DNA of 64,000 nt from Minisyncoccia bacterium (GTDB lineage: Bacteria > Patescibacteriota > Minisyncoccia > Phycocordibacterales > PALSA-1337). Shown one piece after another: positions 3,380 to 56,526 of the stretch (position 1 is the first letter of the stretch; each line of letters starts with the position of its first letter). Location of the stretch: contig JBIIIW010000001.1 of assembly GCA_044234345.1 (NCBI GenBank), positions 1,766 to 65,765 on the forward strand, given 5' to 3'. The translations under genes and the position numbers were made by a program. The notes below the pieces were generated by a model. The model saw only the letters and a list, made by a program, of their open reading frames with translations, was not told the DNA's origin and made no database searches.

Positions 3380-3406
3380 AACCGGATTAAATTCCGGTTT
3401 TTTTAT
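3380..3406 (+). terminator. intrinsic terminator
   Basis: aaccggattaaattccggtt hairpin followed by a T7 run. Confidence 0.7.
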
Positions 3407-3441
3407 TTGTATATAAAAACAATATTTGTTACTATCTCGGT

Positions 3442-3942
3442 ATGTATAAAAAAATAATTATCTTAGCGTTTTTAATAGTAGTTCTCGTAGTGTTCCTGTC
3501 TGTATTTAAAAATCCTTCACATAAAACAGACGTTATAGATATTGATAATTCAATGAAAGATGAATGGTCGAGTCTACCCCCATATATCCTACAAGGAAAC
3601 TATTCAACATACTCATATATCAACGAGGGAATTGAATATATTCCAGAAATAGATCCGAAACCTGCTACTACAACTTGTCCAGTATTCATTGTTACGGATG
3701 GAGATGAAACTAATATATCAAGATATAAGAATATGGTTAATGAAGGTAATGCGGTAAATCACTTAAATGAGAAAGGTGAGTTGGTCATAAACATTGATCC
3801 TACTGACCTTCCATTAGAGCAACAAGAGTCTCTAATGAAATCAACTTCAACTGTATCCATATTGGTGAAGAATAAATTTTTGGATGGTAGAGATGCTAAT
3901 GCCTGTGAGAGTTTTATAAGTCTAGTTTCGATAGAGAAGTAA
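3442..3942 (+). CDS. hypothetical membrane-anchored protein
   Basis: 166-aa ORF with an N-terminal TM helix (IIILAFLIVVLVVFLSVF). No recognisable catalytic motif. Confidence 0.5.
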   Translation: MYKKIIILAFLIVVLVVFLSVFKNPSHKTDVIDIDNSMKDEWSSLPPYILQGNYSTYSYINEGIEYIPEIDPKPATTTCPVFIVTDGDETNISRYKNMVNEGNAVNHLNEKGELVINIDPTDLPLEQQESLMKSTSTVSILVKNKFLDGRDANACESFISLVSIEK

Positions 3943-3963
3943 ATAACCTGTGTATATATTAAT

Positions 3964-4278
3964 ATGAACCCTCCGATTATTAAAGGCTTCTACTATCACT
4001 ACAAGCATAATGCAGAAGGTGAGGTTAATAACTATGCATACGAAGTAACTGGCACAGGACTGCACACAGAGGATAGAACATATTTTGTTATATATCGCCC
4101 TCTATATGCAAACACCTTTCTAGGTTCAGCTGGATACTGTATACGCCCATACGAAATGTTTACAGGTAATGTTGAGATAAATGGAAAATCAGTGAAACGA
4201 TTTGAGAGAATTGAGGATGAAGGCCTCATTCTTAAGCTGAGTCAAATAAAGAGGGAAATGTATGGAGAGGATAAATAA
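3964..4278 (+). CDS. DUF1653-like small protein
   Basis: GFYYHYKHN...YEVTGTGLHTEDRTYFVIYRPLY...RPYEMF resembles the DUF1653 pattern (YRHYKG..YEV...HTE....VVYR.LY). Strong terminator downstream. Confidence 0.5.
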   Translation: MNPPIIKGFYYHYKHNAEGEVNNYAYEVTGTGLHTEDRTYFVIYRPLYANTFLGSAGYCIRPYEMFTGNVEINGKSVKRFERIEDEGLILKLSQIKREMYGEDK

Positions 4279-4284
4279 GTAGGA

Positions 4285-4306
4285 AAGCCGGCACGAGTGC
4301 CGGCTT
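4285..4306 (+). terminator. intrinsic terminator
   Basis: aagccggcacgagtgccggctt hairpin followed by cttt. Confidence 0.6.
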
Positions 4307-4479
4307 CTTTGATCTTCCTTATCCCTCGAGTTCGTCGAGTTTGATCTTAGGAATCTCTGTTCCTGCAATCAGTATTCTGAACGCTTCCAATGTGCCTGCA
4401 ACTGTTCCAGGTTCTCCAGGAACAATTTCATCAATAGGTTCTTCCATAAATGCGAGTAATTTGAGCTACGCCAAATACA

Positions 4480-4535
4480 TGTTACACCAAACGAAAGGGA
4501 AGAGGAATACCCTAAATTATCAATAAAATAGCTAT
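4480..4535 (+). repeat. left copy of an imperfect ~52-56-nt direct repeat (28-nt identical core aacgaaagggaagaggaataccctaaat at 4490..4517)
   Basis: Compared directly with 6178..6229: tgtta-N5-AACGAAAGGGAAGAGGAATACCCTAAAT-[tc]atc-ata..tagctat. Confidence 0.8.
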
Positions 4536-4654
4536 AGACATATCTTGACTTGTGTAGTCTAGTGTGGTACCTTTTGGCAGTATCAGTTAAGAGCCTGCGA
4601 GTGTAGGAATTCAAGACTGAAGTAATAGCACCTTAACAAAGAAAGGAACACGTC

Positions 4655-4976: not shown

Positions 4977-6077
4977 ATGATTATCGCGAACATTCCGTTA
5001 GGTATACAACTCGGTGTGATGCTGTTATGCAGTGTAGCTGGTCTCTGGATATTCCACTATTGTGTGATTAGAGTGATCTTACAAGGAGGTCGTCCGCAAA
5101 ATGGTCCGCCAGAGAGTAGGGAAGAGAAATCAACAGAGGTTGCTTCAAAAACTTCGAAGATCCTGCTCGATGAGTTGAAGACAAGCCTGGTTAAGACTCT
5201 AAGAAAGCGTGACCGGGAAAGTCAATGTGATTCAGCGTTCTGGGCATCTTTTTCGCTTGTTGGAGAAAGCGAAGAGTTTGGTGTCGTGGTCTTAAGGGTA
5301 GACACTAACAACTATGGTTATCAAATAAGAACAGGTAACTTTAAAGATTCGAACGCTTGGGAAAATCTGGTAATAGCGACCCGAAAAGGATACTGCTTCC
5401 TTGGAAGAGTGAACCTCTACAAGGGTGCTGTGTATAACGGGCCGTTTCAGATTACAAAATCCGAAAGTGGATCAATTGTAGTTAGCTGGGGACAAGCTTC
5501 GTTCACTATTAAGGACGAGGAGATGAGAGGTGGTTATGATTTTCCATTCGAATTACCTCCGCGTTCTGAGATGGTAAGAACTGTCTACAACCTTAATGGT
5601 GCTATTGTCGTAATCGATGATGATCCAGGCCAAGGTCGGTATGTTCAGTTTTCGGTAGATCAAATGGGTAAGCGACTGAAAGCAGATCGCACAGTCTGGG
5701 ATTTACCGGGTTGCGTTAGGTGTGTCAAAGATGCAATTCAATATTTACCAGATTGTAGTGGTCGTCGTGAACAGGTTAGACTAGTCCTCGTTGACGGCAA
5801 CTTTAGCGGGGATGGAAGAGGTTTCAATACCGGTAGACTCATTCCTGTATTGCGCGAACGATACCCCAATGCACTCCTTTTCGCGAATAGTGGAATGGCT
5901 GAGAATCATACTAACCATACTCCCGAACTATTGGCAGCTGGTTGTGACTGTGCGCTCTCGATCGAAGATTATGGTTATAAGTCAAATCTGACTAAAATCC
6001 TAGCAAGAGTAGCCGAGCTCAAGCCGGAGATTCTTGTGAGTGAGGAACTTGACTTGAATGAAGTTCTAAAAATCTGA
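4977..6077 (+). CDS. hypothetical membrane-anchored protein (GC-rich cassette gene 2)
   Basis: 366 aa with an N-terminal TM helix (IPLGIQLGVMLLCSVAGLWIF). C-terminal region VLVDGNFSGDGRGFNTGRLIP...LLAAGCDCALSIEDYG is of unknown fold. Good RBS and terminator. Confidence 0.6.
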   Translation: MIIANIPLGIQLGVMLLCSVAGLWIFHYCVIRVILQGGRPQNGPPESREEKSTEVASKTSKILLDELKTSLVKTLRKRDRESQCDSAFWASFSLVGESEEFGVVVLRVDTNNYGYQIRTGNFKDSNAWENLVIATRKGYCFLGRVNLYKGAVYNGPFQITKSESGSIVVSWGQASFTIKDEEMRGGYDFPFELPPRSEMVRTVYNLNGAIVVIDDDPGQGRYVQFSVDQMGKRLKADRTVWDLPGCVRCVKDAIQYLPDCSGRREQVRLVLVDGNFSGDGRGFNTGRLIPVLRERYPNALLFANSGMAENHTNHTPELLAAGCDCALSIEDYGYKSNLTKILARVAELKPEILVSEELDLNEVLKI

Positions 6078-19671: not shown

Positions 19672-20523
19672 CTATATCCCCTCTTTCTTCAATTCCTCAA
19701 CTAGTTTCTGTGCACTCTTAGATAGCTTTCTTGGCATATCAACTTTTGTAACAATAAGTAGGTCTCCCCTTCTTCCTCTCTCATCTGGAACTCCTTTCTG
19801 TCTAACTCTAAGTATTTCATTATGTGTAGTTCCTGATGGAATCTTTAACTCTATCTTCCCGTCTAATGTCTCAATATCAAGTGTTGCTCCAAGTAGTGCT
19901 GTTGTAAGCTTAAGATTAAGTTCCATGATCAGATCAAAACCTTGTTTTCTAAATGTCTTGTTCTCCTCAACCCACACACGAACAATTAGGTCTCCCTTTC
20001 CACCAGGACCATCCTCTCCTTTTCCAGTAATTCTTAATCCTTGCCCGTTCTCAATTCCAGAAGGAATAGTTACAACTATTCTCTCTCCATTTACATTAAT
20101 TTCTTTTTCAGTTCCGAATATAGATTCTTTGAAACCAAGTTGGATATCTACAGTAATCTTTGCACCTCTTCTAGGTCGTCTTCCACCTCCGAAGAAATCT
20201 CCGAACATCTCTCCAAGATCAAACTCAAATGATTGACCATTCTGTCCTTGATACTGTTGTGCAAATCCTGAGAAGTCGAATCCTCCGAAACCTTGTCCAG
20301 GATTAAATCCTGCACCTTGATCAGCCGATCCATACGTATCATACCTTTGTCTCTTCTGATCATCAGACAATACAGTATATGCTTCGTTTATCTCCTTAAA
20401 CTTAGCATCATTACCCTGATTCTTATCAGGATGATGTTCGTGAGCAAGCTTACGAAATGCTTTCTTTATCTCGTCTTTTGATGCTCCTTTTTGTATTCCC
20501 AGTGTTTTGTAATAGTCTTTCAT
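19672..20523 (-). CDS. dnaJ: DnaJ-class chaperone (J domain + C-terminal substrate-binding domains, no zinc finger; CbpA-like)
   Basis: [35 protein letters not shown] (J domain with HPD), a G/F-rich linker, and C-terminal DnaJ_C-like repeats. Confidence 0.85.
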
Positions 20524-20656
20524 GTGGGTATAAATATAGCAGAAATTGTTACTGGATTAGTATTGACTTTAGTGATCATTTATGATAAAAAGATAAAAGT
20601 GAATTCAGGATGGATGTCCAGAGTTCTTCGTAAGAAACGACGAATTCTATACCTGT

Positions 20657-20866
20657 ATGACTTGTCCGGTTTGCAATAGTCAATTTTGCGATCACACTCA
20701 TGGTCAGAAAAATGGCGCACGACAGAGAATCAATAAAGGATTAAATCCTGTTGATGTCAGGCATGAAGAATGGTTGTCTGATCCAAGCGGTAATCCATTT
20801 TATAATCCATTGCCTGTTAAGGTAAAGCAACCTGAAGAAGATGGTTATTGGCCAGGGCCAGGATGA
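20657..20866 (+). CDS. small Cys/His-rich hypothetical protein
   Basis: 69 aa (MTCPVCNSQFCDHTHGQ...), GC-rich, with a weak hairpin downstream. Sits between dnaJ and the Fic gene on the opposite strand. Confidence 0.3.
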   Translation: MTCPVCNSQFCDHTHGQKNGARQRINKGLNPVDVRHEEWLSDPSGNPFYNPLPVKVKQPEEDGYWPGPG

Positions 20867-20919
20867 TTCAATTTTTAACACCGAAAACCGGCTTCCTTTT
20901 GAGGACAGTCGGTTTTGTT

Positions 20920-21933
20920 CTACATCAACAAATTTGAAACCAAAGCAACCATAAGTTCTTTGTCCCTAGGATTACTCTCAGCAATGAGTAATGCAAGAGC
21001 TACTAGAGTATTGTCATTTATCTTCTTCTCTCCGTTGTCTCTAATATCCATCCTATTTAGTCTCAGGAAGTAAATGAATACAAATGACCCTATACGCTTG
21101 TTACCATCTGAGAAAGGATGATCTTTAATGATGAAATACAATAAGTGGGAAGCTTTTTCGTTAAGACTTGAGTATAGCTCCTTACCGTCGAAGGTTTGGT
21201 ATATGGTCTTAAGAATACCTTGGAAACTTCCATCCCTTTCGGAACCGAATATATCTGTAGCTTCCTTCTTATCAACCAATACTTCTTTAAGCATATCTAT
21301 CGATCCACGAATGAATTCATAATCAAAACGTCTTTTCTCAATATCCTTACCCTTCCTTAGCTGCAGCTCACCTTCATCATATTCCTTTAGGAACTTCCAA
21401 GAATTCGCATAGTCATGGATAACGGAAAGAAGACTATTAGACTCACCCCTGTCCAATTCTCTGTTTCTAATTGTTCTTTGAATAAAGGAGATCTTTTCAT
21501 CTAAGTCACTAAGTATCTTGTCTGGTAGTTTAGATATTCTTTCGTTGTTAACTACAATACCTTTGATTAGATACTCACGGAGAGTGACGGTGGCCCAGAT
21601 ACGGAACTGAGTTGCTTTCTTGGAGTTAACTCTATATCCAACAGATAGTATTACATCTAAGCTATAGAACCTTACCTTGTAATTCTTACCATCAGCGGCA
21701 GTATGTTCCAAAATGGAACTAACTGAACTTTCGTTAAGCTCACCAGAATCGAAGATATTCTTAAGATGTTTTGTAATTGCTGGTCTTTGCGTTCCAAATA
21801 ACTCTGATATTTGTTCCTGCGTAGCCCAAATCGTCTCCTTGTCCGTATCCGCTCTTAGCTCAACTACCCCATTCTCACCTGTGTATAATACTAACTTACC
21901 GTCCTCATTTATAACGATGTTTTTGTTTACCAT
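20920..21933 (-). CDS. Fic/Doc-family protein with N-terminal RhuM-like domain
   Basis: The N-terminus (LYTGENGVVELRADTDKETIWATQEQISELFGTQRPAITKHLKNIF) resembles the RhuM virulence-protein domain. The C-terminus carries the Fic motif HPFSDGNKRIG. Confidence 0.8.
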   Translation of the reverse strand: MVNKNIVINEDGKLVLYTGENGVVELRADTDKETIWATQEQISELFGTQRPAITKHLKNIFDSGELNESSVSSILEHTAADGKNYKVRFYSLDVILSVGYRVNSKKATQFRIWATVTLREYLIKGIVVNNERISKLPDKILSDLDEKISFIQRTIRNRELDRGESNSLLSVIHDYANSWKFLKEYDEGELQLRKGKDIEKRRFDYEFIRGSIDMLKEVLVDKKEATDIFGSERDGSFQGILKTIYQTFDGKELYSSLNEKASHLLYFIIKDHPFSDGNKRIGSFVFIYFLRLNRMDIRDNGEKKINDNTLVALALLIAESNPRDKELMVALVSNLLM

Positions 21934-22105
21934 ATTTAATTTTGCTAACTATTATTAAAACTTGCAGTTAAATCCCGGGAATGATTACTGAATTGATTGA
22001 GTTAAATCTAGTACAACCTAGATTGACCTCACAATTATATCAATATTAAAAGTAAAAGACCACAATATTTGTGGTCTTTTACTAATTCTATATTCCCTAC
22101 TCTAC

Positions 22106-24256: not shown

Positions 24257-24284
24257 ATCCGCATTAATTTGCGGATTCTTTTTA
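24257..24284 (+). terminator. intrinsic terminator
   Basis: atccgcattaatttgcggat followed by tcttttt. Confidence 0.6.
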
Positions 24285-24578
24285 TTTAGCCGGAGCCCTC
24301 GTAGGTTGACTCATAAAGAAGTCTAGAGAGATATATGGAGATATCCTAGATATATATGAAGGAGTTGTATCTAGAGCAAGATCTTCGGCATCAACTGATA
24401 TTGGTAGACATACTACATTCTCAGACTTAGTAACTATAGGTTCAGCAGACACGATCTGAGCTGTAAGCTTTCCATTAACATCAACTACAGTAAAACGAAC
24501 ACGTACAAGTACACCATTCTTGTCGTAGATGATTCTCTCAAAGATGCTATTGAGTTGTTTTGAAGCAATAGCTAACAT
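24282..24578 (-). CDS. hypothetical protein
   Basis: 98-aa ORF with no recognisable motif. Confidence 0.35.
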   Translation of the reverse strand: MLAIASKQLNSIFERIIYDKNGVLVRVRFTVVDVNGKLTAQIVSAEPIVTKSENVVCLPISVDAEDLALDTTPSYISRISPYISLDFFMSQPTRAPAK

Positions 24579-24637
24579 ACAAGTATTATATTATATTTTG
24601 CAAATTTGTCCAACCAAATCCATGCTATGATTACCTT

Positions 24638-24925
24638 ATGCAAACACTTATACACGCAGACATATTCTTCTTCGTAACAACAGTAATAGTTATAGCTTTA
24701 GGACTAATTTCAATAGTCATATTGACCTACATAGCATTCATAATTGCAGATATACGTGAGATATCACGCATAGCTCGTAGAGAGAGTGGAGAGATAGCTG
24801 AAGATATTGCAGAGATTAGAGGTGAGATAAAGAAAGAGATACGTAATAACTCATCAGTTATTACGTCTATATTTAAGGTAATCAAAAACCTATTTAATAG
24901 AAGAGGAAGAGTTAATAAAAAATAA
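24638..24925 (+). CDS. small membrane protein
   Basis: 95 aa with an N-terminal TM helix followed by a charged helical tail (EIAEDIAEIRGEIKKEIR). Confidence 0.4.
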   Translation: MQTLIHADIFFFVTTVIVIALGLISIVILTYIAFIIADIREISRIARRESGEIAEDIAEIRGEIKKEIRNNSSVITSIFKVIKNLFNRRGRVNKK

Positions 24926-25255
24926 ATGAAAAAGAAAAATAATAACAATATAGCTATAGGTATTGGATTAGCTACCCTTGCAGCAACTACAGCTGGAGCA
25001 TACTTCTTGTATGGTACTAAGAAAGGCAAGGTCCAAAGAAAAGCAATTAAGAGTTGGACCCTAAAGATGAAGGGAGACGTAATGGATGAAGTAGAGAAGC
25101 TTAAGGACGTATCTGAGGAGTCATACCATAAAGCTATTGATAAGGTATCAAAGAAGTATAACAAGATGAAGAATATGGATATGGTAGAACTTGCAGAGAC
25201 AGCAGACTCACTTAAGAGTCACTGGAAGGATATAAAGAAGGAGATTGGGATTTAG
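24926..25255 (+). CDS. small membrane protein, YtxH/DUF948-like
   Basis: 109 aa, NIAIGIGLATLAATTAGAYFLYGTKKGKVQRK... plus a long charged helix. Pattern typical of YtxH-like proteins. Confidence 0.45.
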   Translation: MKKKNNNNIAIGIGLATLAATTAGAYFLYGTKKGKVQRKAIKSWTLKMKGDVMDEVEKLKDVSEESYHKAIDKVSKKYNKMKNMDMVELAETADSLKSHWKDIKKEIGI

Positions 25256-25320
25256 ATCTGTATAAAAGTTTGTCCGAGAGATCTTGCGATCCCCCGGACG
25301 ATTTGTAATTCATTATTTGT

Positions 25321-25947
25321 TCATTTTACGATGAGAGTTTCCAGATGTTCCATTACCTTCACCAAGCTATCATTCAAGATTACTGGTGATGTTTTTACAT
25401 TGATACAATCGAGGTTCTCGATGCCGACTGGTATGTATCCTTTTCCGTGGTTACCCCAGTCATTGTGTGACATGTAATCTGCCAGATCCCACATCATGGG
25501 TTTAGTCCTTTCTGGATTATTTAGATCCATTTCATACTCAGCTCTGGCTATGCGTTCAATTTTTGCATACACGGACTCCCATGTAACTCGGATGGCTTTC
25601 ACTCTGTTCCTCTTGCGGAATCCTCCAAAGAACAACTTACCGTTGTTCGATACAAAACCTTCTTTCTGCCTTTCTCCTATCACGTATTCGAGAAAGTAGT
25701 CAGGATGGCAATTTGCTTCATAGAATATCTCAGCTGGTCGGTCAAGCGTCTCTACTGTTATGATTACTCCGTAGCTGTAGGCATCAAATACCCTAATCGC
25801 AATGTCGGTTGTTGGGTCAAATGCGCTATCAGACGGTCTATGACCTCTGGTCATGTATCCGTTAATAGGTTTTCCAACTTCCGGCTCGTATACCGGAACT
25901 ATTTCCGGCGCGTTGCCAATAGGTTTACAACTTCTAGCTCTTTTCAC
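25321..25947 (-). CDS. hypothetical protein, GC-rich ORFan (208 aa)
   Basis: Soluble ORF of higher GC with no recognisable motif. Confidence 0.5.
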   Translation of the reverse strand: MKRARSCKPIGNAPEIVPVYEPEVGKPINGYMTRGHRPSDSAFDPTTDIAIRVFDAYSYGVIITVETLDRPAEIFYEANCHPDYFLEYVIGERQKEGFVSNNGKLFFGGFRKRNRVKAIRVTWESVYAKIERIARAEYEMDLNNPERTKPMMWDLADYMSHNDWGNHGKGYIPVGIENLDCINVKTSPVILNDSLVKVMEHLETLIVK

Positions 25948-26031: not shown

Positions 26032-26574
26032 CTATTTCCCCTCCCCAATCTTAACCTTAGGAGCCTTCAAAACCTTGCCATTAAGCTCATATCCCTTCTG
26101 TACAACTGTAGTTACTATATCACTCTGTTTACCATCCTCTATAGCTTCATCACGCATAGGGTCAAATGTCTTACCTATAGGGTCGATTTCCTTAAGACCA
26201 AAGTCTTCTAGAGTCTTCTTAAGCTGATTAGCAATATATTCAACTCCCACTCTCCAGTTCTTGTCTGCCTTCTCCCATGCTTCCTTGTTACCCATAGCCA
26301 TATTAAAACTATCTAATACAGGTATTAGTTCAGTAATTAGATTCTCGTTAGAGAAACGAGCAAAATCTTTTTGTGATTCTTGATCACGCTTACGAGCATT
26401 TATAAACTCAGCTTTGTCTTTCTGCCAACCATTTAGATACTCCTGCTTCTCTTCAATAGCTTTCTTAAGCTTCTCCTTAAGTACCTTAACAGTATCTAAA
26501 GCATTCTCTTCGATGACTACAGAGTCATCAATATTCTCATCCCTTTCAATTGTGATATCATTTTCATCTTTCAT
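26032..26574 (-). CDS. grpE: nucleotide exchange factor GrpE
   Basis: Coiled-coil N-terminus and a GrpE core (DFARFSNENLITELIPVLDSFNMA...GLKEIDPIGKTFDPMRDEAIE). Confidence 0.85.
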   Translation of the reverse strand: MKDENDITIERDENIDDSVVIEENALDTVKVLKEKLKKAIEEKQEYLNGWQKDKAEFINARKRDQESQKDFARFSNENLITELIPVLDSFNMAMGNKEAWEKADKNWRVGVEYIANQLKKTLEDFGLKEIDPIGKTFDPMRDEAIEDGKQSDIVTTVVQKGYELNGKVLKAPKVKIGEGK

Positions 26575-56481: not shown

Positions 56482-56526
56482 TTAATTGTATTTAAAAATA
56501 TAATACTTATTATAACACCAATTCTG

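Follow-up and report, generated by a model that had tools for sequence, protein, structure and literature searches.

We analysed a 64,000-nucleotide stretch of contig JBIIIW010000001.1 from a Minisyncoccia bacterium (hereafter the window), in which a gene for a 337-amino-acid (aa) protein lies between the chaperone genes dnaK and dnaJ. The protein, referred to here as RhuM-Doc, joins a RhuM-type N-terminal domain to a C-terminal Fic domain of the Doc type. The explanation that we consider best, with a probability of about 0.6, is that this is an intact accessory gene of the RhuM/Fic/DOC type (PDC-S23) in a variable dnaK-dnaJ cargo slot of a Paceibacteria genome (Taylorbacteria-like, from the candidate phyla radiation), and that its product would be a self-inhibited, translation-blocking kinase used for defence. 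Coordinates of the features are collected in Table 1.

Domains, motif and family of the RhuM-Doc protein

Both parts of the protein were recognized by profile searches. In Pfam, Virulence_RhuM (PF13310) matched residues 72-156 with 80.4 bits (cut-off 33.7), and Fic (PF02661) matched residues 230-290 with 40.4 bits (cut-off 24), both far beyond what chance would give. These matches confirm the description given in an earlier note on this DNA, namely a RhuM-like N terminus and a Fic/Doc motif in a 337-aa protein between dnaK and dnaJ, and the 40.4-bit match provides the Fic fold by hidden Markov model on which that note had made its proposal depend. The PF13310 match covers only profile positions 3-88 of 252 and falls short of the full-length RhuM architecture; from the alignment, a linker and the Doc domain stand where classical RhuM has its C-terminal half. 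The C-terminal domain was also matched by the NCBIfam profile TIGR01550 (DOC_P1; residues 212-307, 39.3 bits) and by the PHROG profile phrog_577, ‘Doc-like toxin’ (E = 6.5e-17). The best match by sequence in the PDB was 9vzc_A, a death-on-curing family protein. Profile matches to T4 lysozyme structures, with E-values above 0.1, were set aside as spurious.

The catalytic motif of the protein is HPFSDGNKR. Members of the Doc subfamily carry Hxxx[D/E]GNKRxx[!R], as opposed to Hxxx[D/E]GNGRxxR in the AMP-transferase class (PMC4454073), and HPFSDGNKRIGS fits the Doc class, with no arginine three residues past the motif. The earlier note had correctly reported the lysine in this motif, and had taken it for a departure from a canonical Fic motif; judged by the published classes, it is a Doc (kinase) signature and not a degenerate Fic motif. 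The inhibitory motif (S/T)xxxE(G/N), which that note had proposed to look for in cis, was not found in a regular-expression search of the 337-aa protein. The same expression matched 6 of 45 homologs, always within the variable N-terminal stretch, and is not conserved in the family. Since the motif is of the GNKR type and the inhibitory motif is absent, kinase chemistry is expected rather than AMPylation.

These 45 homologs are 58-86% identical to the window protein. None of them departs from it at H272, F274, D276, G277, K279 or R280, N278 is kept almost without exception, and 41 have HPFSDGNKR letter for letter. Because the catalytic residues are kept in this way, the Doc domain appears to be an enzyme under selection, with selection acting on catalysis. 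The same conservation of H, D, N, K and R, down to 58% identity, makes it extremely improbable that the protein acts only as a DNA-binding regulator with a catalytically dead Doc domain, a proposal that could otherwise draw on the proteins of 169-173 aa found at the same position in loci L023, L037 and L038, which consist of the RhuM N-domain only. Over residues 9-158 the identity of these short proteins to the window protein reaches 67%, and they carry a common short tail, ...FIESKV.GKVKGK.TLKLTKE.., in place of the Doc domain; that of L037 also gave weak matches to Bro-N and Phage_pRha.

An AlphaFold2 model of the full protein had a mean pLDDT (predicted local distance difference test score) of 69.6 and a pTM (predicted template-modelling score) of 0.48, with a pLDDT of 74-88 in the C-terminal domain. 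In this model the C-terminal domain adopts the Doc fold: Foldseek aligned it to P1 Doc (3k33_A and 3dd7_A) with probabilities of 0.96-0.98 and target-normalized TM-scores of 0.58-0.64. With 3kh2 included the probabilities were 0.92-0.98, and the E-values for the whole query were weak (0.2-0.7). The modelled N-domain (pLDDT 71-95) contains helix-turn-helix (HTH) helices at residues 39-46 and 50-63, a beta-hairpin at 72-90 and a long helix at 105-124. Its Foldseek matches were weak and of winged-helix type only, for example to TFE-alpha (probability 0.82, E = 0.07), with the others worse; we tentatively regard the RhuM-type domain as probably a winged-helix fold.

The architecture is already named and catalogued, and is functionally uncharacterized; the gene as such is thus no discovery. 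More than 8000 homologs of the 337-aa protein are present in the database, aligning end to end among the matches listed. NCBI names the family ‘virulence protein RhuM/Fic/DOC family protein’, and JGI names for homologs are ‘prophage maintenance system killer protein’ or ‘death-on-curing family protein’. In PADLOC, three profiles of the phage-defence candidate PDC-S23 matched residues 11-336 with E-values from 1e-117 to 2e-108, the best (1.2e-117) spanning profile positions 4-323 of 327. Profiles of the sister candidate PDC-S05 matched the N-terminal part, residues 8-159, with E-values down to 1e-59 over residues 8-225. PDC candidates were proposed from their recurrent embedding in known defence loci such as restriction-modification (R-M) systems, and one PDC-S05 gene expressed in E. 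coli lowered the plating of T7 and T5 about 1000-fold and also protected against T4 (PMC12881386). A search of the literature for RhuM and Doc combined returned nothing on such an architecture, and neither is discussed in the main text of the guilt-by-embedding preprint.

Comparison with related systems places the window protein as follows. It has the same full-length architecture as PDC-S23; those candidates were defined by embedding in defence loci, whereas the window gene and its subclade lie between dnaK and dnaJ. With PDC-S05 and Salmonella RhuM it has the N-terminal domain in common, but PDC-S05 members carry other C-terminal domains. Doc of the Phd-Doc system of phage P1 is a kinase that phosphorylates EF-Tu and stops translation (PMC9207808 and references cited there). 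The window protein resembles P1 Doc in its Doc fold, in a kinase-type motif with K for G and in its match to TIGR01550. P1 Doc, however, is a single domain of ~126 aa, while the Doc domain of the window is fused to a RhuM/linker region of 200 aa and is accompanied by no Phd or other antitoxin gene. The locus lacks the adjacent co-directional antitoxin gene of a Phd-Doc type II toxin-antitoxin system, because no such ORF (open reading frame) is present next to the RhuM-Doc gene; the 172 nt between dnaK and its start codon contain no ORF, and its sole small neighbour is a convergent mini-ORF that is not co-conserved and is found elsewhere without Doc.

Two further comparisons are more distant. 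Fused toxin-antitoxin proteins of the CapRel(SJ46) type likewise carry a translation-blocking toxin domain and a regulatory or sensor domain on one polypeptide; their folds are unrelated to those of the window protein and the domain order is reversed, and the likeness is an analogy only. SoFic is reported to be a single-gene, defence-associated Fic enzyme that targets EF-Tu (preprint 10.64898/2026.07.09.737422). SoFic and the class I-III Fic AMP-transferases belong to the same Fic/Doc superfamily, but have the motif HxFx(D/E)GNGRxxR and an inhibitory (S/T)xxxE(G/N) helix, in contrast to the GNKR of the window protein and its lack of the inhibitory motif.

Distribution and age of the gene at the dnaK-dnaJ site

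In an unbiased scan, the DnaJ of the window was searched against one genome per GTDB species, which yielded 80 loci. Both dnaK and dnaJ were readable in 71 of them, about 65 of these from Patescibacteria. Of the ~65 Patescibacteria loci, only three (L020, L026 and L057) have the full-length RhuM-Doc gene. Two more copies come from loci whose contig does not include dnaK, L029 and L016, the latter with a fragment at the contig edge. Carriers make up only ~5-8% of related species. A uniform lineage feature, the alternative to an insertion that the earlier note had raised, had been suggested by look-ups of seven homologs selected by Doc. All seven (60-86% identity) directly precede dnaJ, in most cases with dnaK on the other side, but they form a biased sample, and the DnaJ-based scan overturned the suggestion, as most relatives have no such gene between dnaK and dnaJ.

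The subclade to which the gene belongs is nevertheless tied to this site. In a metagenome scan, all four homologs with at least 63% identity were found at dnaK/dnaJ, compared with none of ~72 homologs with at most 56% identity, a sharp boundary. The commonest neighbours of the latter were R-M genes, with ResIII in 8 and SWI2_SNF2 in 7, plus methylases. Plasmid homologs (38-45% identity over 96% of the length) occur in Legionella, Methylophaga, Shewanella, Vibrio, Pseudomonas and Aeromonas; one of them lies between hsdS and hsdR in a type I R-M operon (hsdM-hsdS-X-hsdR), and another adjoins a Tn3 transposase gene. At eight loci, pairwise identities of the Doc protein were correlated with those of DnaK and DnaJ (Mantel r = 0.76 and 0.78; p = 0.003 and 0.004, respectively).

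The nearest relative, L014, was informative about the age of the gene. Its DnaK and DnaJ are 99% and 97% identical to those of the window, and the RhuM-Doc gene is absent. In the 851-bp gap of L014 a RhuM fragment of 42 aa is still encoded, with 48% identity to residues 46-87 (E = 1e-8), and a 65-bp block corresponding to 20884-20948 of the window, made up of the gene's last codons and the downstream hairpin, is 95% identical; by blastn this block is the only part of the variable segment that aligns. Since the RhuM fragment and the 3′ end of the gene are retained, the L014 site is a decayed copy and not an empty site. The RhuM fragment (7206-7514 in L014) is nearer to an L057-type allele than to the window gene, although the 65 bp next to it have 95% identity to the window. 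This combination points to replacement of the allele, and later decay, at the L014 site.

These observations bear on the mobile toxin-like module that the earlier note had suggested from an insertion inside the chaperone operon, and on whether such a module entered this strain recently by horizontal transfer. The toxin-like and accessory character of the gene stood up, as did its absence from L014 and most other species and the occurrence of the wider family on plasmids, next to a Tn3 transposase gene and in R-M operons. The recent insertion itself did not: besides the remnant in L014, all homologs of at least 60% identity that could be placed lie at the same site, and the closest homologs diverge together with the flanking DnaK and DnaJ. 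The GC (guanine plus cytosine) content of the gene, 0.35-0.39, is like that of its flanks. No integrase or transposase was found near the gene in the window, the only tRNA of the window is at 56526, and a search for flanking direct or inverted repeats returned only short two-copy matches at chance level. The indel boundaries are at 20630 and 22048 and do not match the positions of a 12-mer pair (20640 and 22081). We regard a recent insertion as largely refuted and very improbable. The best reading of the sequence comparisons is that RhuM-Doc would be an old resident of the dnaK-dnaJ slot that has frequently been lost, neither a universal lineage feature nor a recent arrival.

Close relatives of the window are often deposited as ‘uncultured Candidatus Saccharibacteria bacterium’, and others at similar distance as Candidatus Taylorbacteria, Paceibacterota or Parcubacteria. 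In these records Saccharibacteria seems to be a generic or mistaken label.

Transcription of the locus and other cargo of the gap

The whole gap between dnaK and dnaJ is 20524-22105. The interval given in the earlier note, 20524-21933, does contain the gene and the mini-ORF, but stops at the start codon of RhuM-Doc, beyond which lie the 172-nt leader and the dnaK terminator. Continuing in the order of the minus strand, dnaJ is followed by trpS and then aspS. Upstream of RhuM-Doc, a 15-bp terminator stem stands directly 3′ of dnaK and is kept in L014; it is followed by a putative extended −10-like element, recognized as a consensus match only, and by a leader of 110 nt after that element. The leader contains two palindromes, which are candidate operators or RNA hairpins. 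An upstream alignment over 21973-22042 shows that TGATATAAT, AATCTAG..CTAG, AACTCAATCA and the CCGGGAAT/CCCGGGAT palindrome are conserved between the window, L003 and L007, with the −10-like element at the same position upstream of the gene; the elements of L003 and L007 lie upstream of position 6001, and the three loci encode proteins that are 76-86% identical. The same alignment found the leader elements absent upstream of the gene in L005, L010, L012, L020 and L057. At the other end, a hairpin between the convergent RhuM-Doc gene and mini-ORF is probably a bidirectional terminator.

Because of these terminators, the gene's own promoter-like site and the convergent ORF, read-through co-transcription with dnaK or dnaJ is not indicated here, and co-regulation with the heat-shock genes, which the earlier note had suggested, is unsupported in the window. 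No CIRCE/HrcA operator was found in the window with up to three mismatches allowed. Elsewhere the arrangement is tighter: in L012, the P0063 contig, L098 and L029 only 0-44 bp lie between the end of the gene and dnaJ, and the two are probably transcribed together.

Such spacing speaks for a domesticated gene of the chaperone locus, whose product, a Doc-type kinase expressed along with dnaJ, would modify EF-Tu or DnaK/DnaJ/GrpE under proteotoxic stress. The restriction of the subclade to sites upstream of dnaJ and its co-divergence with DnaK and DnaJ point the same way. The eukaryotic Fic protein FICD modifies BiP, an Hsp70, and this too counts for such a role. So does the reported targeting of EF-Tu by SoFic (preprint 10.64898/2026.07.09.737422). 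A domesticated chaperone gene fits poorly, however, with a presence in only ~5-8% of related species and decay in L014, with the insulation of the window gene and the lack of CIRCE described above, and with the unrelated toxins that occupy the same slot in other species. We consider this role improbable, and it is just as doubtful that the dnaJ-linked subclade was taken into the stress response, where it would slow translation via EF-Tu, or modify DnaK/DnaJ, upon protein misfolding.

Toxin-type genes abound in the gap, which is a hot spot for accessory genes. Its length ranges from 12 to 6860 bp across relatives, compared with ~80-320 bp in outgroup bacteria. Five species carry in it a YafQ/RelE/ParE-like toxin of 88-89 aa after an ORF of 59-68 aa; in L057 this pair sits between the RhuM-Doc gene and dnaJ. 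Further cargo in relatives includes PemK/MazF toxins, ClpP-like genes and M28 peptidase genes. Canonical Fic proteins of two kinds (GNGR or GNKR) were found in the gap of L018 (6930-7982) and L025 (7215-7961); in L025 the protein has the inhibitory motif TSNALEGN, and in L018 it has the motif QPFEDGNKR and an HTH-like region at the N terminus.

The presence of classical type II toxins in the same gap (the YafQ/RelE-like toxin with its small upstream ORF, and PemK/MazF) would be in keeping with RhuM-Doc as a single-chain toxin-antitoxin addiction element, in which RhuM would be a fused antitoxin and autorepressor, Doc the toxin, and the gene would persist selfishly with no role in phage defence. 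The conserved palindrome-bearing leader and the lack of a separate antitoxin ORF agree with this proposal, while loss in most species and decay in L014 argue against strong addiction, and the pairing of the RhuM N-domain with many different C-terminal domains in PDC-S05 is expected of a sensor module. We consider an addiction element possible but unlikely. It overlaps in mechanism with the defence kinase that we prefer, and the trigger alone differs.

The Cys-rich mini-ORF, which the earlier note had listed as inserted in the same gap, is by its homologs a real gene and a near-orphan. It matched no family in Pfam, NCBIfam, PADLOC or PHROG, and a word-indexed database of 5.8 billion proteins returned only itself. 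Among 1.84 billion representatives one true relative cluster was found, P0122, in which the homolog adjoins the 3′ end of dnaK; a match to the 1105-aa P0123 was a repeat artefact. The dnaK-dnaJ gap of L033 encodes a homolog with 50% identity (E = 2e-18) that keeps C3, C6, C11 and H13. Between the two genes, identity at codon positions 1/2/3 is 62/72/48%, and different codons are used at 13 of 28 conserved residues, as is usual for protein-coding DNA. The family, M.CP.C.S.FCDH..GQKN.ARQRIN, is thus known from three places, all beside dnaK: the window, L033 (1941-2162, minus strand) and L176 (141-362, plus strand). The two other copies, in the gap or next to dnaK, are without Doc, and the mini-ORF and the Doc gene are independent cargo, since each occurs without the other. 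ORFs of 94, 88 and 87 aa between the Doc gene and dnaJ elsewhere were tested as mini-ORF homologs and are not homologous. One guess from the conserved residues is that the product might be a C2CH zinc knuckle.

Some further features of the neighbourhood were recorded. The DnaJ of the window consists of a J domain, a G/F-rich linker and DnaJ_C, lacks the CXXCXGXG zinc finger and scores below all NCBIfam DnaJ equivalog cut-offs. This short form is common to most relatives; L010 has at the same position a DnaJ of 368 aa with the zinc finger. The gap between grpE and dnaK is also variable. It contains a 208-aa ORF (25321-25947) with no Pfam match that is absent from L014, and L014 has ~600 bp extra (3380-4618) where the window (24282-25947 region) has 26 bp. 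A PemK/MazF-family toxin gene (57 bits; 15424-15813, minus strand) lies 4 kb downstream of dnaJ, and a 413-aa ORF without a Pfam match (15995-17236, plus strand) adjoins it.

Table 1. Features of the dnaK-dnaJ region of the window, with cargo found in the gap of related loci (L numbers, own coordinates)
Feature	Location	Strand	Basis or remark
grpE	26032-26574	-	
dnaK, 627 aa	22106-23989	-	HSP70 PF00012, E = 1e-244
Intrinsic-terminator hairpin directly 3′ of dnaK, 15-bp stem then TTTTAATATT	22051-22083	-	kept in L014
Extended −10-like element TGATATAAT for the RhuM-Doc gene (putative)	22034-22042	-	consensus match only
5′ leader with palindromes AATCTAG..CTAGATT (22005-22024) and TCCCGGGA (21973-21980)	21973-22024	-	
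RhuM-Doc fusion gene, 337 aa, intact	20920-21933	-	ORF list, Pfam, NCBIfam, PADLOC
RhuM-type N-terminal domain, residues ~12-157, winged-helix-like core at 36-124	21463-21900	-	
Doc-type Fic C-terminal domain, residues ~205-337	20923-21321	-	
Catalytic motif HPFSDGNKR, residues 272-280, Doc/kinase type	21094-21120	-	
Hairpin AAAACCG...CGGTTTT between RhuM-Doc gene and mini-ORF	20884-20916		
Mini-ORF, 69 aa, MTCPVCNSQFCDHTH..., C3, C6, C11 and H13 conserved	20657-20866	+	ORF list, homologs
Variable gap segment relative to L014	20630-22048		flanked by blastn blocks 24018-22049 and 20629-19578
dnaJ, 283 aa, J domain and DnaJ_C, without zinc-finger domain	19672-20523	-	Pfam
Two-gene YafQ/RelE-like pair	L027 1313-1771; L043 7530-7991; L046 6059-6521; L057 2968-3440; L063 7509-7963		
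RhuM-N-only proteins, 169-173 aa, directly upstream of dnaJ	L023 2985-3506; L037 1688-2200; L038 7481-7990		

Proposed mechanism and its meaning

In the mechanism that we propose, the C-terminal Doc domain would act as a protein kinase to bring translation to a halt, EF-Tu being the model target by analogy with P1 Doc. The RhuM N-domain and the linker would hold the kinase off in cis, the N-domain acting as sensor or regulator. A trigger, most plausibly phage infection, would release the kinase, and phosphorylation of a translation factor would lead to growth arrest or abortive infection; a release of this kind would resemble that of fused toxin-antitoxin defence proteins. The N-domain may also autoregulate the gene through the leader palindromes. 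Its position beside chaperone genes would reflect a permissive slot flanked by highly conserved genes rather than a chaperone function.

Several points weigh against this explanation. The substrate, the kinase activity and the cis-inhibition of RhuM-Doc are all things that we infer, and no published experiment was found on PDC-S23 or on any Patescibacteria member. In the window the gene is not embedded in any recognizable defence system; its flanks are dnaK and dnaJ. The link of the subclade to dnaJ is exclusive and long-lived, and in L012, L098 and the P0063 contig it is as close as in an operon. A link of this kind is unlike that of a freely moving defence gene and leaves room for a chaperone-related role. 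The AlphaFold2 models are of moderate quality only, and a contact between the RhuM and Doc domains cannot be read from them. The margin of the TIGR01550 match is small (39.3 bits against a cut-off of 38.65).

The dnaK-dnaJ gap, and also the grpE-dnaK gap, form a recurrent slot for toxin and defence cargo in the very small genomes of candidate phyla. The RhuM-Doc subclade, kept in this slot through deep divergence and repeatedly lost, offers a natural presence/absence series for single-gene Doc fusions. If the stress-kinase role considered above were true, it would be a bacterial counterpart of FICD acting on BiP, in organisms that show no control of the CIRCE/HrcA type here. If instead PDC-S23 is a phage-triggered kinase of EF-Tu, a Doc-based mechanism would join the known single-gene defences.

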